Below are positions 3,226-64,000 of a DNA stretch of 64,000 bases, piece by piece. The stretch is taken from contig OZ024745.1 in the NCBI GenBank assembly GCA_964016885.1, forward strand, positions 107,756,001 through 107,820,000, given 5' to 3'. Each line of letters opens with the position of its first letter. Position 1 is the first letter of the stretch. A program made the position numbers and the translations under genes. The notes beneath the pieces were generated by a model, which saw only the letters and a list, made by a program, of their open reading frames with translations, was not told the DNA's origin and made no database searches. Source of the stretch: Eledone cirrhosa (Eukaryota).

Positions 3226-4213
3226 TTTGTGTGTATGTGTGTGAAATCAGAAATATACACACATTAATATACACACGCGCAAACACACATGCACACAAAT
3301 ATGCAGTTAGTGAAATATAGTAAAAATGTGAAAGCCCACTAAAAGTAACTTTTCTACATTGCTTTGTAATATTATGTCGTCATCTTTTGAATAGTAATTA
3401 AATATGTTTGGGTGTGGTTTACAGTATTGGTTACACACACACTCTAATTAAGATGCCTCCGTCAGAGAGAGGTTGTCAAATGCGTTTGTTTTTATAGTAC
3501 TTCAACATTAACAACAGCAACATCTGCTGTAGTAGCTACAGTAACAGAAGCAACAACAACAACAGCAATGGTGAGAAGAAGAAGAAGAAGAAGAAGAAGA
3601 AGAAGAAGAAGAAGAAGAAGAAGAAGAAGAAGAAGAAGGTGGTGGTGGTGGTGGTGGTGGTGAGGATGATAGTGGTGGTGGTGGTGATGATGATGGTGGT
3701 GGTGGTGATGTTGTTGGTGGTTATAGATGATGGTGATGGTGGTGGTGGTGATGATGATGTTGTTGTTGGTGGTGGTGGTGTTGGTGGTGATGGTTGGTGA
3801 TGATGAAGATGACGTTGGTGGTGGTGATGATGGCGGTGGTGATGGTGATGAAGGTCGTGATGGTGATGATGAAGGTCGTGATGGCGATGATGATGGTGAT
3901 GATGATGATGATGATGATGATTAAATGGTACAAAATCTGGCAGAGATATCTACAAAATATGGGGCATGTAGAAGTTGTAATCATGCCATTAATAATGTGT
4001 GCATCGGCGACGGGAACAACCTAAATTAAGAACTAGAATTACGAAATTTTAAGTGACATGTGGATAAAACCTCTTCAGAAGAGGACAATCTTAGGAACTG
4101 CTTGTTTCCTGGCAAAGATTCTTGAAACACACAGAAAGAACATCTGAAATACCATTAATCATTTTTCAAAACTCAGCATAATAACAGGCATATGACTAGC
4201 TTGTTGAAACGAA

Positions 4214-5200
4214 TTAATTGTTTCTACTTTTGGCACAAGGCCAGCAAATACCCAGTGCATTACTGGTACTTTATTTTATCGACCCCGTAAGGATGAAAGG
4301 CAAAGTCAACCTCGGCGGGATTTGAGGGATATGACTAGCTTGTTGAAACGAAATAATAATAATTGTTTCTACTTTTGGCACAAGGCCAGCTATTACCCCA
4401 GTGTATTACTAGTACTTTATTTTATCGACCCTGTTAGGATGAAAGGCAAAGTTAACCTCGGCGGGATTTGAACTCAGAATGGCAAGGGCCGTAACTCAAT
4501 GCGTCAAGGCATAGCGTCCGACCCTCTACCGATACTGCCAATCCGCCGCCCTTACGAAATAATAATAATTGTTTCTACTTTTGGCACAAGGTCAGCAATT
4601 ATCCCAGTGTATTACTGGGACTTTATGTTATCGACCCCGTAAAGATGAAAGGCAAAGTTAACCTCGGCGGGATTTGAACTCAGACCATAAAGGGCCGTAA
4701 CTCAATGCGTCAAGGCATGGTGTCTGTCCCTCTACCGATACTGCCAATCCACTGCCCTTACGAAATAATAATAATGATTTCTAGTATAGGCACAAGGCCA
4801 GTAATTTTGGGGGGAGGGGAAAGTCGACTAAATCGACCCCAATACGTTACTGGTGCTTTATTTTATCGACCCCGTTAGGATGAAAGGCAAAGTTAACCTC
4901 GGCGGGATTTGAACTCAGACCGTAAAGGACCGTAACTCTATGCTGCAAAGCATGGCGTCCGACTCTCTAGCGATATTGCCAATCCACCACCCTATAATCC
5001 AACGAAATAATAATAATAATAATGTTTTTACTTTTGGAACAAGGCCAGTAATTACCCCAGTACATTACTGGTGCTTTATTTTATCCACCCCGTAAGGATG
5101 AAAAGAAAAGTTTACCTCGGCGAGATTTGAACTCAGAACGTAAAGGGACATAACTCTATCCTGCAAAGCATGGTATCTGATGTTCTACCGATACTGCCAA
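4214..5200 (-). mobile_element. Tandem cluster of about 5 tRNA-derived SINE copies (SINE-1)
   Basis: Repeated ggatgaaaggcaaagttaacctcggcgggatttgaactcag (reverse complement of B-box GAGTTCAAATCC plus conserved body), with (AAT)n tails. Confidence 0.88.
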
Positions 5201-7463: not shown

Positions 7464-7467
<4 letters not shown>

Positions 7468-7591
7468 CCATTACTCTCCAGAGTACTCGATACTTGGGGT
7501 AATAGTGTGGGTAATATGAAAAAATTCAGGATCCATTCGGATTTAGCTGTTGAAACGACCGGAGCTCAGCCGTCGGGGTCTTGAATTTTTT

Positions 7592-11947: not shown

Positions 11948-12022
11948 ATCACCCACTGATGAGCTTGGATTAGTATTTCTATTCACAATTAATTTTGCGA
12001 AACAACAAGTTGTCTGGGTGAT
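11948..12022 (+). ncRNA. Type I hammerhead ribozyme, canonical core, predicted cleavage after GUC at 12014
   Basis: atcaccca CTGATGA gc...gc GAAACAAC-aa-GTTGTC tgggtgat: 8-bp helix I, 5-bp helix III. Confidence 0.88.
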
Positions 12023-14510: not shown

Positions 14511-14736
<226 letters not shown>

Positions 14737-16694: not shown

Positions 16695-16732
<38 letters not shown>

Positions 16733-16823
16733 CGAAGGAAATGTGGTAAGGAACCAGGTGGACCATAACGCATCAAAGTACTCAATACTTGGGGTAGTAG
16801 AGTGGGTAATAGGAACCAGTAAG

Positions 16824-16917
16824 ACCCGGACAGCTGAGCTCAAGCCGTTTCGACGGCTAATTCTGGACTAAATGAAAATTTATCCTGGTATTTAAATAGC
16901 CGATCTTCTCAAGGGGT
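16824..16917 (-). ncRNA. Type I hammerhead, U3-A8 variant core (family B); first helix I pair mismatched
   Basis: Reverse complement of 17051-17144 with one G>C change. Confidence 0.65.
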
Positions 16918-17050
16918 AATTCCATATATGGTCAAAGTGATTGTCAAAAATCAGTAGTAATACTGTGGTTGCAAATTAGTAGGGGAGATGGTGGCTAAAC
17001 CTGCCAGTAGGAGAAAGAGGGGAGGGGGTGGAGTAGACCCAATCGGAATT

Positions 17051-17144
17051 ACCCCTTGAGAAGATCGGCTATTTAAATACCAGGATAAATTTTCATTTAG
17101 TCCAGAATTAGCCGTCGAAACGGCTTGAGCTCAGCTGTCGGGGT
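17051..17144 (+). ncRNA. Type I hammerhead, U3-A8 variant core (family B), GUC at 17139
   Basis: acccc TTGAGAA ga(t)cggcta...tagccgtc GAA-ACGGCT-tgagctc-AGCTGT-C ggggt. Confidence 0.78.
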
Positions 17145-17234
17145 CTTACTGGTTCCTATATATATATATATATATATGTATATACATGTGTGTGTGTGTG
17201 TGTGTTTCTACTGTGTTTTATTGATCTATTGACC

Positions 17235-28281: not shown

Positions 28282-28631
28282 TGTGTGTGTGTGTGTGTGC
28301 ATATATACAGTTGTATAAATATATGTTTGTTGCTTTCATTTGATTTTCGTCAAGGGGGGAGAAGTTGAGATTTTCTTTAGCGAAGTGGTCAGGCAATGGG
28401 TGATGAGAGTAGTATAGTTGTGACCTAAGTTAGCTGTTATTTTAATACATTACTTCTGCAAAATACATTTCAATTGCGACTAAAAACATACGTCACAAAT
28501 ATCTTTAGATTTTATCTTTATTTAGTTTTCTTCGTTTAATGTTTTGATTTCTGTTTTTCTTTCCCCTCTATAATCTAAATTTAAGAAAAAGAAAATAGAC
28601 GTTGGAACCGTTAGATATACTAGACCCCATA

Positions 28632-29125
28632 ATAATTATTTTTACTTTTGGCACAAGGAAAGGAATTATCCCAGTGCATTACTGGTACTTTATTTCATCG
28701 ACCCCGTAAGGATGAAAGGCAAAGTTAACCGCGGCAAGATTTGAACTCAGACCATAAAGGCTCGTAACTCTTTGCTGCAAAGCGTGGCGTCCGACTCTCT
28801 ACCGATACTGCCAATCCACCTAATAATTGTTTCTGCTATTGGCACAAGGCCAGCAATTATCCCAGTGTATTACTGGTACTTTATTTTATCCACCCCGTAA
28901 GGATGAAAGGCAAAGTCAACCTCGGCGGGATTTGAACTCAGAATGGCAAGGGCCGTAATTCTATGCGTCAAAGCATGGCGTCCGACCCTCTACCGATACT
29001 GCCAATCCACTAATAATTGTTTCTACTTTTTGCACAAGGCCAGCAATTACTCAGTACATTACTGGTACTTTATTTTATCGACCCCGTAAGGATGAAAGGC
29101 AAAGTTAACCTCGGCGGGATTTGAA
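28632..29125 (-). mobile_element. Three tandem SINE-1 copies
   Basis: Repeated body motif joined by taataatt. Confidence 0.88.
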
Positions 29126-32238: not shown

Positions 32239-32300
<62 letters not shown>

Positions 32301-32304
<4 letters not shown>

Positions 32305-32480
32305 AACGAGTAGGACCCCGACGGCTGAGCTCAAGCCGTTTCGACGGCTAATTCTGGACTAAATGAACATTTTTATCCTGGTATAGGGTCCTACTCGATC
32401 CTATTACCCACTCTACTACCCTAAGTATTGAGTACTTTGGTGCGTTATGGTCCACTTGGTACCTTACCACATTTCCTTCG

Positions 32481-32482
<2 letters not shown>
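32301..32482 (+). mobile_element. Family B fold-back fragment
   Basis: Inverted partial HHR, then gggtcctactcg...tail...ccttcgt(TA)n. Confidence 0.85.
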
Positions 32483-32931: not shown

Positions 32932-32971
<40 letters not shown>

Positions 32972-32975
<4 letters not shown>

Positions 32976-33164
32976 AAAATGTTTAACCCCGGCGGCAGAG
33001 CTCAAGCCATTCGACGGCTATTTCTGGAGTCCAGAAATAGCCGTCGAAACGGCTTGAGCTCTGCCGTCGGGGTCATACTTTTTCCTATTACCCACTCTAC
33101 TACTCTACTTATTGAGTACTATGCTGCGTTATGGTCCATCTGGTTCCTTACCACACTTCCTTCG

Positions 33165-33166
<2 letters not shown>
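32972..33166 (+). mobile_element. Family B fold-back fragment
   Basis: Hairpin centred at tctgga-g-tccaga (~33029), then tail. Confidence 0.85.
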
Positions 33167-40653: not shown

Positions 40654-40682
<29 letters not shown>

Positions 40683-40684
<2 letters not shown>

Positions 40685-40874
40685 GGAACGAGTAGGACCC
40701 CGACGGCTGAGCTCAAGCCGTTCCGACGGCTAATTCTGGACTGAATTAGCCGTCGAAACGGCTTGAGCTCAGCCGTCGGGGTCCTACTCGTTCTTATTAC
40801 ACACTCTACTAACCTAAGTATTGATACTTTGGTGCGTTATGGTCCACCTGGTTCCTTACCACATTTCCTTCGTT
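40683..40874 (+). mobile_element. Family B fold-back fragment
   Basis: Hairpin centred at ~40738 inside helix II, then tail. Confidence 0.85.
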
Positions 40875-44843: not shown

Positions 44844-45450
44844 GGTGGCTGCCAGCTCGTTTTCGAGTACGGCCACTACTTTATATCCATGTAGGAGAAC
44901 CCTTACTGATGCGCTGAACGAATGTGACTTTTTAGTCCAGTCAGAGACATGAAAACTCTGGTACAAACACTACACTTGTGACAATTATTGACACATAGTG
45001 CTGGGCCGATGGTACCATGTGACAACAAGTGCAGAGAGATCTCCAGATATAAAGCAATCTCTGTGCCATGAAGCTTTTATAGTGAGCAAAGGCACTGCAC
45101 AAAGCCAGTCCCACTCTCTTAACCAAGATGATATTTACCAAAAAGAAGAACAAGTCAACATCATTGGATACCATCAGGGTTGCAGGTGTTATATCAGAGT
45201 TTTCCTTCTCCTAGAATTCTGCCTTGACAAAGGCTAAGGGGTCATCTCTCCCGGTGATTTTGGATGGCCATTGACTCTTAAGAGCTCCTTTGCCCTTTGA
45301 CAGGTTTTGTTTTTAGTCCTGCAGGATATCCAAAGTCACCCTCCTCACCAAGAAACCTTGGTGGGGTTGCCAGTTTAGTCGCCAACAAACCCGACCATGA
45401 GACAGGTTGTACTGGGATACATGTTACCAGTAGCACCAACTGGTGACCTG
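44591..45450. repeat. Two diverged copies of an interspersed repeat (44591-44750, 45260-45450), each followed by (TACA)n
   Basis: ttggatggcc.ttgactct...gccctttg.caggttttgtttt...gacaggttgtactggg.tacatg.tacca.tag.acc. Confidence 0.75.
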
Positions 45451-45536
45451 ACATACATACATACATACATACATACATACATACATACATACATACATAC
45501 ATACATACATACATACATACATACATACATACATAA

Positions 45537-47670
45537 AAATTACCGCCCAATTGCCTGCCAAAACATCATGTATAAATTATATACTGGGTGCCTTAACCTG
45601 TTCTTACAGGATCACTGTGCTACCAACATCATAACACCTGAGCAGGCTGGTGGAAAGAGGGAGGTGTGGGGTTGCATAGATCACCTACTAACTAACAAAA
45701 TGACTCAGGAAAAAACAACAAAGAATCGCAGAAACATGACTGTCGTGTGGCTGGACTATCAAAAAGCATTTGATAGTGTACCTCATGGGTGGATTGTTAA
45801 GGCTTTACAATTAGCTAAAGTCCCACAACCATTGGTAGCTGCTGTTGAACGCCTGACCAAGAACTGGTACACCAGTTTGATCCTTAGAGGTGAGAAGGAG
45901 CAGGTTAAGACTGATAAGATACATTACCAGAAGGGTATCTTTCAGGGTGATAGCTTGTCAGTGCTACTCTTCGTTCTCTCACTGAATCCACTATCTTACC
46001 TACTCAGGAAACAAGGTGGACAAAGAAGTGGGACCAGAAGTATCTCCCATCTTTTCTTTGTTGATGACCTGAAGTTGTATTGGCCAAATATCAATGACAT
46101 CAAGAAACAATTGGACCTCATTACACAATTTTCAACCGACATCAAAATGAAATTTGGTGAGTCCAAGTGTGCATATTTGGCAGTAAAACGTGGAAGAGCT
46201 GTGCCCTCCTCTAGAAATCTAGAGATGAACAGCCTGACAATACAACCTCTGCAGTCAGGTGACAACTACAGATATCTTGGACAGGATGAGAATGTCAGAT
46301 ATGATGGACCCATAAATAAGGAGAGAACCAGAACTGAATACCTCAGAAGAGTAAAGAAAATATGGTCATCAGAACTGTCAGCATACAACAAATACATTGC
46401 CCACAATACTTATGCTGTGCCAATTCTAACGCCAACATTTGGCCTACTGAACTGGTCATTGCAAGAACTAAGTGAGATGGATGTTAGAACTCGAAAACTT
46501 CTCAGTGTTACTGGGAACTTTAACATCAATGGTGATGTGGATAGGCTATACTTCTCACGCAAGGAAGGTGGCCGGGGTCTAAAATCAATATTAATAACAT
46601 ATGAGACCCGGATAGTGACACTGAAGCAACACCTTCAACAGAGGAAAAAGGTTGGCAACCAACTTGCCCAGGTTTATGACCATGAAAAAAGAAATATCAT
46701 TAGAATAGCGACTGATCTGGAGGAGAGATATGGACTAAAGCCTGATATAAATCTCTCACCCAGAGAAATCGGAAGATCCTATTCAATGTTCAAACAAGAT
46801 TAAAAAAATTGACCAATTTACAGAAAAAGTTGTGCATGGATACTTGAGGCGTAAAACACAGACCATAGAGGGGATAAACCACTCAAAAAGCCTGGCATGG
46901 AGTTCCGACAAGTTTATGACATCACACCTTGAGGGATATCTCTATGCAATACAGGAACAAGAACTCCCTACCAAATATCTGCTGCACAAAAGAGGAGGGC
47001 CAGCAGCTGACAATAAATGTAGGCTATGTAAAACAAAGATCGAGGATGTAAGCCACATTGTTGCCAGCTGCGAAAGAATGTCATCTCGCTACTACCTCCC
47101 CATGAGACACGATGGGATAGCTAGAACCATCTGGAACGCACTTCGGACAACAAAATTAACAACAAACGAGGAAGAATATATTGAGACAGATGGCACTAAG
47201 GAATACTGGTGGAACCTGAAAATAAAAACTGCCACCAAATTAAAGCACAACCGGCCAGATATTGTAGTTTGGGACCACACATTGAAAACGTGTTCTGTTG
47301 TGGAGATCAGCTGCCCACGTGATGTAAACGTTGTCAGAAAAATACAGGAGAAGGAGGACATCTACGGACCATTGATGAGGAGTTTACAAATCCAGTATCC
47401 AAGATACACCTTTAGCTTCATACCCATCATTATTGGTGCTACGGGTTATATACCAACCCGCTTGGACCAAAGTATGACTGAACTTGGATTTGCGGACAAA
47501 AAGCGCAGCTCCCTAATTCATAGTCTACAAATGGCTGCGATAGCTGGCACCTTCAAAATTTGCAAAACATTCTTGCGATTCAAGGGATGACAATTTCTTT
47601 TCTTTTACAACCTTGCCACCAGGAAGGTGGCCGGTCAAAAAAATATACTCAAAATTAAGAGAAAGAGAAA
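45537..47670 (+). mobile_element. 5'-truncated R4/Dong-type non-LTR retrotransposon (RT, CCHC, restriction-like endonuclease), one frameshift at ~46800
   Basis: NYRPI, QAGG, LDYQKAFDSVPH, GIFQGDSLS, FVDDLKLY; CRLC..H..SC, RHD, RPDIVV..EIS; (TACA)n on both sides. Confidence 0.92.
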
Positions 47671-52741: not shown

Positions 52742-53639
52742 AACATTTAGATATAATTAGTAATAAAATGTATCATACCTAAACTACTCCTAGATTCCTC
52801 GACTACGTAGTTTCGTGGCATAAACAAAAACAATACATCATAAAGATATAGAGTCCTTGCGAGATCTGCCGACTTATCAAGAGGTAACCTCTTGATAAGT
52901 CGGCAGATCTCGCAAGGACTCTATATCTTTATGATGTATTTTTTTTTGTTTATGCCACGAAACTACGTAGTCGAGGAATCTAGGAGCAGTTTAGGTATGA
53001 TACATTTTATTACTAATTATATCTAAATGTTTCTTCTCTCTTCATAATGTATTTTTAACTCTGATACTGGTTCAGTCTAATTCAACCGGATTGGTCTGTC
53101 CCAGTCATTCATTGAGCAACATCGGTAAGGTTGGCACCATTAACTCACGGTTGGGTGTGGATGCATTCATGTATATGTGTGTGTCCGCATGTATCTGTGT
53201 GTTTCTAAATATATTGTTCATAACTCCCTCTGGTCGAGTAATCTTTGAAGTGTGGTGACTGCTGGAAAGCTGCCATTACTCATACTTCTCTCCCCCTTCA
53301 CCACCTCTTCTACGGCTTCGGTATAAATACCCCCTCCGCCTCCGTGGTATTTTCTTCGGGGTTATAAGAGGCTTAGCTCTGTTTCTCGACCGTTATATCG
53401 CGTGACTATCTCCCTCTCCGCCTTTTGGGATTCTTTCTCACGTCGTGTAGACGCGTTCTTGAAGCTAGTAAAATGGGGTATCCTCTTGATAAGTCGGCAG
53501 ATCTCGCAAGGACTATATATCTTTATGATGTATTGTTTTTGTTTATGCCACGAAACTACGTAGTCGAGGAATCTAGGAGCAGTTTAGGTATGATACATTT
53601 TATTACTAATTATATCTAAATGTTTCTTCTCTCTTCATA

Positions 53640-54496: not shown

Positions 54497-54987
54497 ATTC
54501 GCGTATATATACATCCATATATATCGATACATGTATACATAATGTATGTGTATATGTGTGAGTGTGTGTGTGCATGCATATATGCATGATGTATATGTGT
54601 GTATGTATGTATGCATGGTTATATGCATTTTTTTCCTATATAGTTTTTTTTAGGTGGGGGAAGAGTCTCTTGATTTTTCTAAGCAATCCAATGATTTTTA
54701 GCTGAGCTGACAAGGTAGCTGATAGGGTTTGGCATGGGTTGGCGTATTCTGGTGGTATTTGGTGTAATGATGGTGGGAGAAACTCGTTAGAGTGGGTATT
54801 TCGCCCAGAATCATGATGAAAATTGAATTAAGAAACTCTGCTGTATATGTGTAGAAGTGAAGGCTAATTTATGGTAACCGATCTGCATGACTGGTTGAAA
54901 TCAGATGAAATGACGCAAATAAATAAATGATGATCGCATTGATAATATTAATAATAATAATAATGATAATAAAAATAGTAATAGTAT

Positions 54988-55110
<123 letters not shown>

Positions 55111-55690
55111 AGGAAAATGTATACTTGTACACACACACACACACACACAAACACACTCATATATATATATGAATGTATATATATATATATATATGAGTGT
55201 GTTTGTGTGTATGTGTGTGTGTATGTGTGTGTATATATATATAATTTGTCTTTGCAAGATTTCTTATTTGAAATCGTGTGTTGAAACAGATATATATATA
55301 TTTATTTATTTATTTATTTATCTATATTTATTTGTCTATATATATATATATATATATATATACGTAGGGGCACTCACATACACATACGTATACACATACA
55401 CGCACACATACATACACACATATGCATGTGTGCATATGTGTGTAAAATAAAGAATGGGCGAAAGCTGGATCTAAATAAGGTGATGTCAATGTTATTGAAA
55501 AAGACCTTATACTGAAAGAGAGAGCTTCGTTGATAGAGAGAAAAAGAGAGGAAAACAGAAGAAAGTATACATCAGATACATAGAAACATAAACAGATGAG
55601 AATAGCTCATTTAAGGATTTTTATCATCTCCATCATCATCATCGTCATCATCATTATCATCATTACCATCATCTGCATTTTTATTTCAAA

Positions 55691-58567: not shown

Positions 58568-61500
58568 CTACAGAACAATGTAGAGAGAAGGCCCATTTAC
58601 ACGGGCCATTCTCGCTTCTTTCACCCACCTTTCATAAAACTGTCTGGGACCAAGCACTTCTCTCTCCATCCTGATTCTTCTTCCGAAGTGGTATCGGAAG
58701 AAGTAAACCAGGTGATGGCCGGAGAGAAAGTCACCCGACCTCAGATTCAGGCGCGTCCACCACACAACCTCTTTCATCATGGCTATTACGCACAGAAAGA
58801 CCGCCTCTGCTTCATTTCTGAAGGGAGGAGGCGGCTTGATGTTCACCACAGACTCGGCGGTTAATCGAATCGGCGCCACACGCGACAGCAGTCGTTCGAC
58901 GTAGCCCCACAGATCGGCAACGCCCGGGCAGTGTACCAGTGCATGCGCAACGGTTTCCTCGTCGCGCACGCATCTGGGACAGATCTTTTTCGCGGGATCC
59001 CTGCCCGGGCGCCCGTGTCTGTAGAGCTTTTCTCGAACGGGCAGAGCCCCCCGGTAACACTGCCAGGCTAGGGACCTCTGGAAGTTGTCCATGGGTCCCG
59101 GGCCGAAAGTTCTACCGAACAGGCTGGCCAGTTCGTCCTCCTCCATGCCTAGCGACTCTCCAAGGGTGTCGTCGCCCCTGCTAGCCACCAACCCTCTATA
59201 GAATGTTGAGGTGGATTCTCCACTGACAGTCGGGTCCGCTTGCCAGATAGCCGTGAGCGCCTGGGCACACTCAGTGTGCCAGTTGCCCAGTTTTCTCGGT
59301 CTTTGCTTCACCCAGGATTGCAGTTCGGTGAGCGAGACGAGCTGTGGGAAGGCTCGCCTCACAAACGGGGCCCACACCGGCTGACCGTTGAGGAATACCT
59401 GTAGATGCCGTAGCCTCAATGCGTGCCTACGCATCAACAGCCACGGCATACCCAGCCCTCCTTTCGAAGGGTGCTGGCAGCAGATGGATCTCCTCACCAT
59501 GGGAGGCCGCTTCTTCCAGAGGAACTGGAAGAGCATGCGTTCCATGATGGTGAGCTTTTCCTTGGGGCAAGGCACGACGGTCAGGCGGTAGTAGATGACG
59601 GACGCTATGTAAGCGTTCGTCACCTCCGCCCGACCTTTCAGTGATAGTTTGCACTTGGCCCACTTCTGGGTCAGCGCAAACACCCTGCTCGTCACCTCGC
59701 CCCAATTCTTCTCCACCTGGAGGTCCGGTCCGAACCAGACCCCGAGCAGCTTCACCGGGCCCTCCGTCCACCGCCCGACGACACCGTCTAACGGCATCGG
59801 TTTGCCCCTCCACGTTCCGAGTTGCAAACCGACTGACTTGTCCTGGTTCAGCTTAGCCCCCGTCAGCCTTTCGTATTCCTCCAGTAGGGTGGCGATCGCC
59901 CCGATTTCCGAGGCGTCCGCCACCATTACTGTTACGTCGTCGGCATAGGCCGAGACCGCTTTGTGCAATCCCGGTTCCAGGGGTATGCCCCGCAGCAACT
60001 CCAACTTCCGCAGCAGTGGCTCGAGAGTCAATACGTACAGAAGGGAGGAGAGGGGGCACCCCTGTCTGATGGATCGGGTGATTTGAAACGGCTCCGAGAG
60101 GTAGCCGTTTACTTTAATCCTAGAGTAGATGTTGCCACTGTGCATGGCAGAAATCCAGCCCCTGAAAACGGGTCCGAAGCCCGCCGCCGCTAGCACCGCA
60201 TCCAGGTAACCATGGTCGACCCTATCGAACGCCTTAGATTGATCCAAGTTGATCAGGGCCCCACCAAAGCCGGGTTCGTAGCCAACCCTCTCTATGATGT
60301 ATCGCATGAGGTGGAGGTTGTCGTGAATGGACCTGGACGGGATAGCGCATGTCTGCGCGTCTCCCACCAAACCACCCACCACAAGCGCCAACCTCTTCGC
60401 CAACACCTTGGCCAAAATCTGTAACTCTGCATTCAGCAGAGTTATGGGCCTAAAGTTACTTAAGTCGTCCCCCTTGCTCTCGTCCTTCCTCACTAGCGTG
60501 ACCACGCCCTTGGTCACAGAACAGGGAATTCTCCCGTTCTGTTGCCAGTTGCAATAGACAGCCTCGAGGAGTTCGGAGAACAAGACCGGCATAGCTAAAT
60601 AAAGTTCGTATGGTAGACCATCGAGACCCGGGGATTTGCGTCTGCTGCATTGGCTGAGCGCTTCCCCGATTTCAGTGGCTGTGATTGGCCCTTCGCAGCA
60701 CTCCGCTTCGCCGCTCGAAAGACGCGGTAGACCGTCGAGGTATGGACCGAAGTCCACATCCCCGTCCGGCCCCCCGCCACCTCCGAACAGTCGAGCAAAG
60801 TGCCTTTGAAAGGTCTCGCACATTCGCTCAGGTTCAAGGATCACCCGTCCATCCTGGTCTCGCAAAGACCGAATGGTGGATTTAATCCCACTCTTGGCTT
60901 CTGTCACGCGGGCCCAGCTAACAGCTTTGGTCCCCTCGTTTCCTAAAGCACGTATTTTACTTCGGACAACGCAGCCTTCGTGCTTCGTGTCAAAGAACTG
61001 GCTCAATGCCGTTCTCGTCGCTAACACTCTGGCTACGTCTCCGCTCCTAATCGCCTCTTCTAGTTTATCTGTTAACTCCCTTTCCCTCCTATTTCTATTC
61101 GCCGCTAGTTCCTTACTGTAACCTATCGAACTTACTCTAATCTCTCTCTTTAGAGATATCCACCACCTACTGTTGACGATCGCTCCCGTCAACCGCATCT
61201 TAACTAAGCTACTAATCCGGTTTCTGTAATCTTTCTTTGTCGGTAAGGACAAATTCATCTTCCAGTAACCGGGACCCTGTCTATGCGTTCTATCAAGGTT
61301 GACCACGCAGGTCACTAATTTGTGATCTGAATAGCCAACCATGATCAGTTCTGGACAACTAAATACGTCCCTATCCTTACTCCTAACCAAAAACCTATCT
61401 AGGTACGATCTAGATTGTCCACTGCGGTTTGCCCAGGTCCAGGTTGGCGCAGTTGGACAATCTAGTCGAAATCTATCGACCAGGTCGAATCGATCGAGTA

Positions 61501-62006
61501 ACCCCTTGAGGCTGCTACACCCCCCTCTATCGGGACATGCCCCTGCATAGTCCCAACGCGCATCTAGGATTCCATTCCAGTCCCCCACTAAAAGCAGGGA
61601 ACGCGACGTTCCTAGAAAAGTCTCCAGACGTTGGAAGAAGTCGGCTCTCTCCGCCCCGAAGGGAGCATAAAGACCGACCAGTCTGAAAGCCCCGCCTTCA
61701 CCACCTCCGACGTCCAGCACCAGTAATCGACCCCCCGGGTCCGAGTGAACAATCTGTACGTCGAGAGTTAGACGTTTATCCAGCAGTACGGCAACTCCCC
61801 CCCCCCCCGCCTCCGGGTTGACAGAGAGATGCGTGCATCTCAAAGTCATCGAAGGCGGGCGCCAGCTGTCTCACGCTGCTGATCCGACTCTCGCAAACAA
61901 CCATCACATCTATACTTTGTGACCTGAGGTCACTTAGAAGCTTTGCTTGCTTCCAAGCTGAGCTCAGGCCACGCGCGTTCAAACAGCCAACTCTCAATTG
62001 ATCTAT
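58568..62006 (-). CDS. ORF2: APE endonuclease, reverse transcriptase, C-terminal CCHC; frameshift in G12 run at 61797-61808
   Basis: CLNARGL, CES, GDWN, SYLDRF, SDH; FRPITLLN, LDQSKAFDRV, RQGCPLS, AYADD; CPRC..H..HC. The N-terminus lies in ORF 61776-61997. Confidence 0.93.
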
Positions 62007-63865
62007 TTTGGTGTTGAAAGTGAAGAAAGAAAAGCACTTACCTCTCCGGGTTGCGTAATTTCCATGGCATCAGGTGTGTTGGGTGGAGGGATGTTTTGTG
62101 GTGGTGTGGGGGTACACGTGTGTGGTGGGGTTGGGGTATTTGGAGTTGTGTCAGGGAGAGGGGCGGTTATGGGGAAATCTTTCAAGAGGACGCGATTCAA
62201 CGGTTTTAAACAGGGGGGGCTCACGTCCCGTCTAAATTGTTCTTTTAAGGAACGATAAAGGTCCAGAGGGACCTTTATCATTTTTAAATGGGTGAAGTTC
62301 TCTGTTGAGATAAAGTTTGGCCCTTCGGTCTGCACCATAGGGTTATTGTTTATTAATTTAACCAGTTTTTTGTTTTCTTTATTTATATATGTGTATTGCA
62401 ACGTCTTTTTTTGTGATGCTGTCAATGTTTCGGAGAGGGGAGGCGCAGATTTATTTTTGTTTGTTGAGGGTGGGGTGTTTTTGATTGGAGTTGGTGTTTG
62501 TGTGTGGGTTATTTGTGGTGTGCTGGGTGTGTGTTTTCTTTTTTTTCTTTTAACTTGTCTGAAGGCTTCTCCTCCTTCTTCTTCAGAAGTTGGGGGAAAC
62601 TCTTCAGCGCTAGGTGGGAGGGACGTGTTGTGTGGTTGTTTTTTTTTTGCGGGAGGGGTAGATTTGTTACTGTTTTTTTTATTATTTGTTTGGAATGGGT
62701 TTTGTGGTGGTGGTGGTGGTAATGTTTGTGTCGTGCTTGTGGTTGGTAATGGTGGTGGTGATGTTTGTGTTGTGGTTGGTGGTGGTGATTTTTGTGTCGT
62801 GCTTGTGTTTGGTGCTGGTGGTGGTGATGTTTGTGTTGTGTTTGTGGTTGGTGGTGTCTGTATTTTGTTTGCTGTGTGTGGTATTAGTGTATTTTTGGAG
62901 GTGGGTGGTGCTGGTGTACTGTTTGTGGTGGGTGTGGGCAATAGTCCTTTTTGGGGGATACGTTTCGGGCAGTTAGCCTTAACGTGTCCCCTTTCCATGC
63001 ATAAATAGCATGCTGGTCTTCTCCCCTCTACAATTATGTCTATTGGGGTAAGGTCATCCAGCCAGATGCGATCCGGGATTTGTGCTATTCTTTCGGGCCT
63101 CATTTGGACTAGTATGTCGAGGCCCATTCCCAGGAACGCATCTCCAGTTGCCTTCCCCATTGACAGCATAGTGTCTTCGCCCATATCAATGAAGCCAGCA
63201 ATAGCCCACCAGAAGTCCATTGTGGGCAGCATTGTTTTTACTTTTACCCTCTGTGTTCTTCTACCCATGTAGGAGGGATAGAAGCTATATGTTGTCGACG
63301 AGAGTGGGCTTAGGGAAAGCTGAACCGCCGTTTCTTTGTCTCTTGTTAGGACCGAAATGCTGCCATAGAGTCGGTCCTTTCGTATGAAGAGAATATTCTT
63401 CATATAGTCTTTTAGGACTAACTCTATTTCCATTTGGCTGGGCTGTGCTGGCTTTCTTGACTGGTTTAGTATAGTTCTGTATATAACTGTGTTTTCTGCT
63501 CTGGCTTTCTTGAATTCTGGGGGGGAGTTAATGGAAAACATTCCGTTTTCCCCCAAAACAATATGTTTCTTTGCTTCGGCCAGTTTTTCTCTGGCGGCAG
63601 TTAGGTCAATTGGTGTGTATGTAATGGATTGCTTTGTTTTCTGGGCGAAAGTTGCCCTGTCGTTATTTGTATTATTTTCTGTTTGTTTGTTTTCTGTTTG
63701 CTCATTTTCCTTAACATTTGTTTTTTCATTTTGTTTGTTTGTTTCAATGTCTAATTTTGTTGTAATTATTTTTTGTTCTTCAGACTTGGGGGGCGTGGCA
63801 GAGCTAATGGCAGACATGTCTGCCATCTTTTCCGCCATGCTGCCAAGAAAGAAATTTTTCGGCAA
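62003..63865 (-). CDS. ORF1: gag-like nucleic-acid-binding protein with CCHC knuckle and Pro/Thr-rich tail
   Basis: 620-aa uninterrupted ORF, CYLCMERGHVKANC, immediately upstream of ORF2. Confidence 0.9.
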   Translation of the reverse strand: MPKNFFLGSMAEKMADMSAISSATPPKSEEQKIITTKLDIETNKQNEKTNVKENEQTENKQTENNTNNDRATFAQKTKQSITYTPIDLTAAREKLAEAKKHIVLGENGMFSINSPPEFKKARAENTVIYRTILNQSRKPAQPSQMEIELVLKDYMKNILFIRKDRLYGSISVLTRDKETAVQLSLSPLSSTTYSFYPSYMGRRTQRVKVKTMLPTMDFWWAIAGFIDMGEDTMLSMGKATGDAFLGMGLDILVQMRPERIAQIPDRIWLDDLTPIDIIVEGRRPACYLCMERGHVKANCPKRIPQKGLLPTPTTNSTPAPPTSKNTLIPHTANKIQTPPTTNTTQTSPPPAPNTSTTQKSPPPTTTQTSPPPLPTTSTTQTLPPPPPQNPFQTNNKKNSNKSTPPAKKKQPHNTSLPPSAEEFPPTSEEEGGEAFRQVKRKKRKHTPSTPQITHTQTPTPIKNTPPSTNKNKSAPPLSETLTASQKKTLQYTYINKENKKLVKLINNNPMVQTEGPNFISTENFTHLKMIKVPLDLYRSLKEQFRRDVSPPCLKPLNRVLLKDFPITAPLPDTTPNTPTPPHTCTPTPPQNIPPPNTPDAMEITQPGEVSAFLSSLSTPK

Positions 63866-64000
63866 AAATAGATATTTATTTTACCCCCTAAACAGGGGGT
63901 AAATGCAAAAATGTTTCCCTAAATAACAGGGGTTAGTGTTCCAAATGTGTTGCACTAAAAAATTTATCCGGTACTTACAATAGTAAGGGTAAATCCCGAT

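Follow-up and report, generated by a model that had tools for sequence, protein, structure and literature searches.

The locus examined here carries a hammerhead motif whose core reads UUGAGAA where the canonical core is CUGANGA. It lies in a 64,000-nt stretch of the Eledone cirrhosa assembly (hereafter the window), and it raises three questions, namely whether the U3-A8 core is a family state, whether it arose by compensatory change, and whether such a motif cuts RNA in cells. Judged from sequence, it is a type I hammerhead motif in the terminal repeat of a young, (TA)n-inserting Penelope-like element (PLE), and it probably cleaves, after C17, a minor fraction of the element's RNAs in cells.

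Anatomy of the motif and its host element

The plus-strand sequence at 17045-17159 has type I hammerhead anatomy, with three helices around the core and helix I open:

17045..17055, plus strand: helix I 5' strand (distal 17045-50, proximal 17051-55)
17056..17062, plus strand: core U3 U4 G5 A6 G7 A8 A9
17063..17116, plus strand: helix II, with proximal stem, internal loop and distal hairpin 17083-17103
17117..17139, plus strand: G12 A13 A14, helix III with self-complementary loop, and G-U-C17; predicted cut after 17139
17140..17156, plus strand: helix I 3' strand with bulge 17145-50; 17140 is G1.1, the end point of the cleavage-site palindromes

In helix I, 17051-55 pairs with 17140-44 and, across the 6-nt 3' bulge, distal 17045-50 pairs with 17151-56. 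Helix II pairs 17063-71 with 17109-16, leaving one bulged U, and 17083-90 with 17095-103 in the distal hairpin, so that this 54-nt domain is far longer than the canonical 4 bp. GAAA occupies 17117-20, helix III (17120-25 with 17133-38) is capped by UGAGCUCA at 17126-33, and the GUC ends at C17139. U4 G5 A6, A9, G12 A13 A14, A15.1-U16.1 and H17 are all present. The core and helices described in the first-pass annotation were recovered in the sequence, and they correspond to the minimum free energy (MFE) fold of 17045-17159 (-27.5 kcal/mol). In that fold the probability of pairing is 0.94-1.0 at 10 of the 11 pairs of helix I and 0.6-0.76 at proximal helix II and at 5 of 6 helix III pairs. The folding energy itself is ordinary (z = -0.52; 51 of 200 shuffles fold as well), and helix I is lost in the MFE fold of a 401-nt context. 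Rfam covariance models gave 0 matches at gathering score and no hammerhead among the 11 matches at E up to 10. The motif falls outside the minimal PLE hammerhead class (min-HHR), where helix III is absent or 1-2 bp long; here it has 5 bp in all subgroups and 6 in F-I. Judged by eye, only the youngest subfamily could accommodate a pseudoknot of the helix II loop with the bulge of helix I.

The span 16824-17159 had been taken as one motif. It does contain the hammerhead, but in two inverted copies, since positions 16731-17159 form one insertion flanked by (TA)n, with a hammerhead in each of its two inverted arms (strand given where assigned):

16695..16730: (TA)n target, left flank
16731..17044, minus strand: 5'-truncated element arm, 314 nt; its end is T2, the distal of two 3' termini, ~100 nt beyond the predicted cut
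16809..16923, minus strand: second hammerhead copy, with N3 at 16912 and a predicted cut following 16829
17045..17159, plus strand: inverted arm with the whole hammerhead; its end is T1, the proximal of two 3' termini, ~20 nt beyond the predicted cut
17157..17180: (TA)n target, right flank, sharing TAT with the element end

The plus arm is identical to the intact element over 115 nt, and the minus arm differs from it at 4 positions; in the minus hammerhead, G1.1 corresponds to C at 16828 and the first (core-proximal) helix I pair is broken. At least six copies had been claimed for this stretch. The number agrees with the six insertions of the lineage in the window but not with core-bearing copies, as the core is held by the 16731-17159 insertion only; the other five are cut off before the core and belong to older subfamilies:

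7464..7582: sister-lineage stub (Z-type helix III), without core
14511..14638: older-subfamily insertion (E-type 3' end), both arms ending at G1.1, 4-nt spacer, without core (by eye)
32294..32482: G-type insertion, one arm ending within 1 nt of the cut site and the other ~66 nt upstream, without core (by eye)
32965..33166: older-subfamily palindromic stub, truncated in helix II, without core
40677..40874: G/H-type palindromic stub, truncated in helix II, without core

The host element consists of 3.54-kb tandem units and inverted partial copies, with an intact 719-aa ORF and a ~78-nt tail. The start codon lies 190 nt downstream of the predicted cut, and the motif recurs after the ORF. All 62 scored ORF matches show 99-100% identity, while the best 120 ORF homologs listed show 38-54%; one half of helix III has 11,306 exact matches in the 3.0-Gb genome. 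The ORF translation contains RWR, DKT, CxCX5C, CxxC and CxH and no CCHH, and the target is (TA)n. Compared with the accessible text of Craig 2021 (PMC8557442) and, by eye, with its supplementary alignment, the translated element carries the marks of the Hydra clade, with RWR replacing RWK. Its architecture is that of an EN+ PLE, namely a single ORF between pLTRs, tandem and inverted 5'-truncated copies, and a tail. Reverse transcriptase (RT) and C-terminal GIY-YIG motifs are visible in the translation, and one homolog carries PF01541, which we take to be the GIY-YIG family. The call of these two domains is based on motifs, because Pfam and PDB sequence searches with the ORF and with a 40-protein alignment returned nothing informative for RT or endonuclease. 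A non-LTR retrozyme, built of non-coding tandem monomers of 170-400 nt, was ruled out, as the units are 3.54 kb long and coding and the stubs are inverted; Naiad, Neptune/Nematis and retrozyme readings were rejected on domain order, linker motif and unit structure. The root could not be placed in a protein tree that included distant outgroups, and a metagenome scan for hammerheads beside outside homologs gave 8 loci, 3 of them with one identical canonical CUGAGGA motif. Elsewhere in the genome, five tandem 3.54-kb units plus an inverted copy, with several open ORFs, were observed at G000:C1:91473243-91493732 (L071-L073), and insertions L019, L033, L070, L071, L079 and L083 have fragments of further Hydra-like families nearby (32-60% protein identity).

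Several further hammerheads and elements were observed around the insertion. A second U3-A8 family (core UUGAUAA, palindromic helix III, ~59-nt helix II domain) is found in the window at 52880 (minus), 52892 (plus) and 53486 (plus); its core is common to 19 of 19 genome matches, and no Hydra ORF relative was found near these 19 loci. A third U3-A8 motif, UUGAAAA with a short helix II and a palindromic helix III, occurs at L077:647 and elsewhere, with 7 descriptor matches, some overlapping, so the genome holds at least two U3-A8 families besides the Penelope-like lineage. Canonical CUGAUGA families are present in the window at 11956, 15108/15188, 20811, 29739, 31386/31871 and 32656/32744, often as inverted pairs and most with palindromic helix III; none was matched by Rfam. 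LINE-type ORFs with RVT_1 and zf-RVT lie at 45379-47590 (plus) and 58568-61870 (minus), the latter also with Exo_endo_phos and with an upstream 625-aa ORF (62003-63880) without Pfam match. A weak Ctr copper-transporter match at 54923-55447 (plus; E 1.6e-4, below the cut-off) is possibly a host-gene exon, and tandem 146-206-bp repeats of one abundant SINE-like sequence occupy 4186-4806 and 28630-29125.

Positions 3 and 8 along the lineage

A genome search with the core pattern returned 2,178 matches, against 0 for the reversed control. U3-A8 was found in 2,149 of them, 16 lacked U3, 13 lacked A8, and none was C3-G8. U3-A8 is the norm of the subfamily and not the state of a decayed copy, in line with the first-pass annotation. 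The expectation that descriptors fixed on CUGA would miss the motif also held, and Rfam likewise gave no match.

Core states were then counted by hand for each subfamily, using patterns with positions 3, 7 and 8 free. Subfamily A is largely U3·G8 (30 of 35, with 2 U3-A8 and 3 other). Among 100 matches listed of 646 for B-E there were 52 U3-A8 (N7 = A, C, U or G), 45 C3·A8, 1 C3-G8 and 2 other, and among 100 listed of 1,301 for F-H there were 70 C3·A8, 28 U3-A8 and 2 A3. The sister lineage Z (100 matches listed of 541) gave 88 U3-A8, 7 U3·G8, 1 C3-G8 and 4 other; in its oldest layer (100 listed of 185), 4 CUGAGGA (C3-G8) rows stand amid U3·G8 rows. The 3-8 pair is non-Watson-Crick in subfamilies A (U·G) and E-G (C·A). 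As C3 makes up 24% of the depth at position 3 in contigs of an independent run, it is no assembly error.

The first-pass annotation had read C3U plus G8A as a compensatory change. Positions 3 and 8 do differ between subfamilies, but not through one compensatory step, because the lineage was amplified with U3·G8 and with C3·A8 on the way. In a tree built from endonuclease-region DNA (31 rows, at most 5 of them youngest copies, rooted on 3 Z1 copies of U3-type G8), the order is a U·G grade, U-A, a C·A grade and again U-A. Monophyly of the C·A group, which was defined by core state after an earlier tree had been seen, was rejected (p-AU 2.7e-6). The within-group distance drops along the lineage from 0.217 (Z1) to 0.030 (youngest), and the U3-A8 side branch D (0.050) is about the same age as the C3·A8 subfamily G (0.044). 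The ribozyme-region tree, in which the grouping rule mislabelled three rows (L114, L240 and L259), conflicts with the ORF tree at the base, placing Z2 between Z1 and A while A joins elsewhere; the basal order and a C3-G8 ancestor are therefore unsure. A single straight path from C-G through U·G to U-A is weakened, as the U3-A8 group Z2 sits between both U·G groups in the ribozyme-region tree. One copy (L335:1416-1533, minus strand; core UUGAGGA) joins a Z-type 5' helix II strand to an A-type remainder and is an intermediate or a recombinant.

The rest of the motif is far more constant. With all seven core letters free, 97 of 100 matches listed of 1,959 keep U4 G5 A6 A9. In each of the 11 subgroups the commonest state has G12-A14, C17, the proximal helices I-III and the GAGCUC loop. 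No subfamily state departs from U4 G5 A6 A9 G12 A13 A14 C17, whereas N7 occurs as any of the four letters. For 17 chosen copies, 90.5% of 306 helix cells are paired, against 17-50% in slid controls, and one A-U/G-C swap in helix II represents one inherited event. The 10.2-11.2 pair forms in the youngest subgroup only.

The C·A copies might hold no mismatch at all, if in CUGAGAA G7 served as G8, with N7 lost and an extra A before G10.1, and a C-G pair were restored. C3 occurs as a subfamily state solely with G7 (43 CUGAGAA, 1 CUGAAAA, 1 CUGAUAA and 1 CUGAGGA among 100 matches listed of 646), and an extra base before 10.1 is common in the PLE hammerheads covered by the accessible text of Cervera 2014 (PMC4209133). 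However, a single origin on a G7 background accounts for the C3-G7 link equally well. Model hammerheads are strongly impaired when N7 is lost, and we regard this register shift as very improbable.

Insertion ends at the predicted cleavage site

Arm ends were surveyed in 100 matches listed of 15,634 to the 20 bases after the cut. Of these, 47 have the 3' terminus at T1 (~+20) and 43 at T2 (~+100), in both cases within (TA)n; a further 3 continue into the ORF, and the remaining 7 end at other points. The same two ends were found in contigs of other sequencing runs. On the 5' side, 65 of the 100 listed arms break off within helix II, 34-45 nt before the cut (~17095-17106), 9 include the whole core, and 4, which are the paired arms of two insertions, end precisely at the cut. 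The usual insertion consists of two inverted arms with two fixed end points, joined to (TA)n. Since both fixed ends lie downstream of the hammerhead, whole copies would derive from uncleaved RNA.

Ends at the site itself were collected with a short-palindrome pattern that allowed end points between 3 nt before the site and ~13 nt beyond it, which returned 188 loci of the youngest subfamily. Junctions were classed by hand at 49 distinct loci listed of the 188. Both arms end exactly at the predicted site in 29 of the 49, comprising 17 with both arms at G1.1 and a foreign spacer and 12 direct joins, where a 2-nt palindrome at the site makes the exact end ambiguous. The others have an arm 1-3 nt short (12), are ambiguous (4) or read at least 2 nt past the site (4). 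In older subfamilies, at-site palindromes account for 24 of 50 listed in G/H (of 104 per 18,656 arms), 9 of 50 listed in C (of 57 per 9,726 arms) and 3 of 16 in E (per 3,026 arms). Per 1,000 arms, at-site palindromes number 7.1 in the youngest subfamily, 2.7 in G/H, 1.1 in C and 1.0 in E, while read-through palindromes climb with age (1.0, 1.2, 2.7 and 3.6, respectively), and the ratio of the two rises along the lineage from ~0.3-0.4 to 7. The ends at G1.1 are likely to reflect run-off of reverse transcriptase on cleaved RNA.

To a large extent, 3' end type follows the core, with 77 of 77 U3-A8 in the youngest subfamily, 5 of 6 U3-A8 in C, 6 of 7 C3·A8 in E and a mixture in G/H (14 and 16). 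A specific lowering of cleavage by C3·A8 was apparent against the youngest subfamily but vanished against a U3-A8 subfamily of similar age (E, C3·A8-type, 3/16 versus C, U3-A8-type, 9/50 at-site; P-value = 0.73, Fisher test) and was therefore rejected. Furthermore, of 20 G/H at-site loci listed of 24, 19 gave a tail, and 16 of these lack the letter that marks the U3-A8 subfamily H (present in 3 of 19, against 6 of 6 U3-A8 H tails and 0 of 12 C3·A8 tails); 7 of the 19 carry an older marker seen in the C3·A8 subfamily F. RNAs of the C3·A8 era therefore ended at the site as well. Cut-site ends are thus not tied to a Watson-Crick core, which is evidence against our preferred explanation, and it follows that wobble cores cut, or cutting occurred in trans, or the polymerase stopped there.

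If wobble cores cut, the 3-8 pair would be loosely constrained, and any pyrimidine-purine combination, including U·G and C·A wobbles, would have let the element spread. These two wobbles are isosteric. It is conceivable, although we hold it only tentatively, that the PLE hammerhead cuts RNA in vivo with a 3-8 pair tolerating U·G and C·A, that the lineage passed through every combination of C/U with G/A as it transposed, and that the cut-site share is a fossil record of ribozyme efficiency. Against this, in the deep-mutational scan of Roberts 2023 (PMC9901934), as far as its accessible part extends, the 3-8 pair was rescued only by a G/C swap.

If cleavage needs a Watson-Crick 3-8 pair, U3·G8 and C3·A8 RNAs might instead have been cut in trans, through helix III/helix I dimers with co-active U3-A8 sister RNAs. 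The predicted dimer of the motif has -71.5 kcal/mol, against twice -27.5 as monomers, the GAGCUC loop is kept in 11 of 11 subgroups, and the U3-A8 branch D was available at about the age of C3·A8 subfamily G. Metazoan PLE hammerheads cleaved only as dimers or with extended helix III, according to the accessible text of PMC4209133. However, two different RNAs would have to meet, and helix III of the monomer already has 5-6 bp; cutting in trans therefore appears improbable to us.

The motif might also be mainly a structural signal derived from a hammerhead, for protein binding or for RT start and stop, the G1.1 end being a polymerase stop at the three-way junction. Positions 3 and 8 would then drift by transitions because catalysis hardly matters. 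The at-site ends in C3·A8-era copies agree with this reading, as do the mismatch core that formed the trunk for three subfamilies and the fact that most arms already stop within the motif; in addition, hammerhead mutants of PAc still insert in vitro (PMC11167929, accessible part). Against it, U4 G5 A6, A9, G12-A14 and C17 are fixed as subfamily states whereas N7 is free, and the ratio of at-site to read-through ends grows along the lineage. Moreover, both arms stop at G1.1 with single-nucleotide precision and frequently bear untemplated A/T, whereas the stall zone in helix II is spread over 12 nt. We consider a purely structural role unlikely, though somewhat less so than cutting in trans.

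For the hammerhead that probably cuts in cells, the following course may be proposed. The putative RT-endonuclease would nick both (TA)n strands, and cDNA would start downstream of the hammerhead, at two internal sites. Synthesis would then stall at distal helix II or at a protein bound to it; a minority of templates would already be cleaved, so that the enzyme runs off at G1.1 and adds untemplated letters. Optional dimers between tandem repeats are a further prediction, made from the self-complementary helix III.

Comparison with published systems

The published systems are compared here on the accessible parts of their reports. The U3-A8 core had been called rare in nature, which is overstated, since natural U3-A8 hammerheads were published by Perreault 2011, ~1,300 matches were reported in Cercyon PLEs of S. 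mansoni (Cervera 2014, PMC4209133), and this genome adds the further U3-A8 families described above. Large helix III variants are also known, in fungi and protists (Cervera 2014, PMC4209133).

The nearest systems are the Hydra-clade PLEs, e.g., Hydra-1_Obim (PMC8557442), which share with the present element the ORF with RWx, DKT, CxCX5C, CxxC and CxH but no CCHH, whose C-terminal endonuclease is putative here, the (TA)n target, the tandem and inverted arrangement and the terminal-repeat hammerhead. In File S2 of Craig 2021 (PMC8557442), 26 of 26 Hydra hammerhead rows are CUGAnGA, having been found with a CUGANGA descriptor, and they show a 3-4-bp stem III and a 3-10-nt loop 2, whereas here helix III has 5-6 bp and the helix II domain 54 nt. 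The U3-A8 core, the 3.5-kb unit and the ~78-nt tail further distinguish the present family, which was set apart from Hydra-1_Obim by eye only. Searches fixed on CUGANGA miss nearly the whole lineage.

Cercyon of S. mansoni (PMC4209133) likewise has U3-A8 in a PLE repeat, more than 1,000 copies, opposite-strand pairs and a palindromic helix III region. Its hammerheads lack helix III and need dimers, whereas here helix III is predicted to be competent in the monomer and helix I is bulged and extended. No subfamily history or junction analysis for Cercyon was found in the accessible text of Cervera 2014 (PMC4209133).

PAc, a Poseidon element of Anolis and the one PLE studied biochemically (Frangieh 2024, PMC11167929), also has two RT start sites and 3' ends downstream of the hammerhead, defining a tail, and an AT-rich target, and uses uncleaved RNA as the main template, as the present element may do. 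The PAc hammerhead is C3-G8, overlaps the start codon and is dispensable for in vitro insertion, and it left no RNA ends at its site, whereas here genomic junctions pile up at the predicted site. The HDV-like ribozymes of R2 (Eickbush 2013, PMC3774820) resemble the present case in that the position of RNA self-cleavage is read in genomic 5' junctions; they are another ribozyme in another element class, where cleavage makes the normal 5' end, while here it would mark a minor truncated class only.

Craig 2021 (PMC8557442, accessible part) calls the function of PLE hammerheads unclear, and cutting in cells and the need for it in transposition are both at issue. Junction counting in a high-copy family offers a genome-only test of in-cell cutting, applicable to any PLE. 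The subfamily series supplies natural C3-G8, U3·G8, U3-A8 and C3·A8 versions of one ribozyme and a rare view of compensatory change with its intermediates. The literature searched contained no report of PLE junctions at a hammerhead site or of C3·A8-amplified subfamilies, which does not establish their absence from print. Compared with the systems above, the U3-A8 core alone is known; its enlarged architecture, the succession of four core states and the junctions at the cut site are what appear to set this hammerhead apart.
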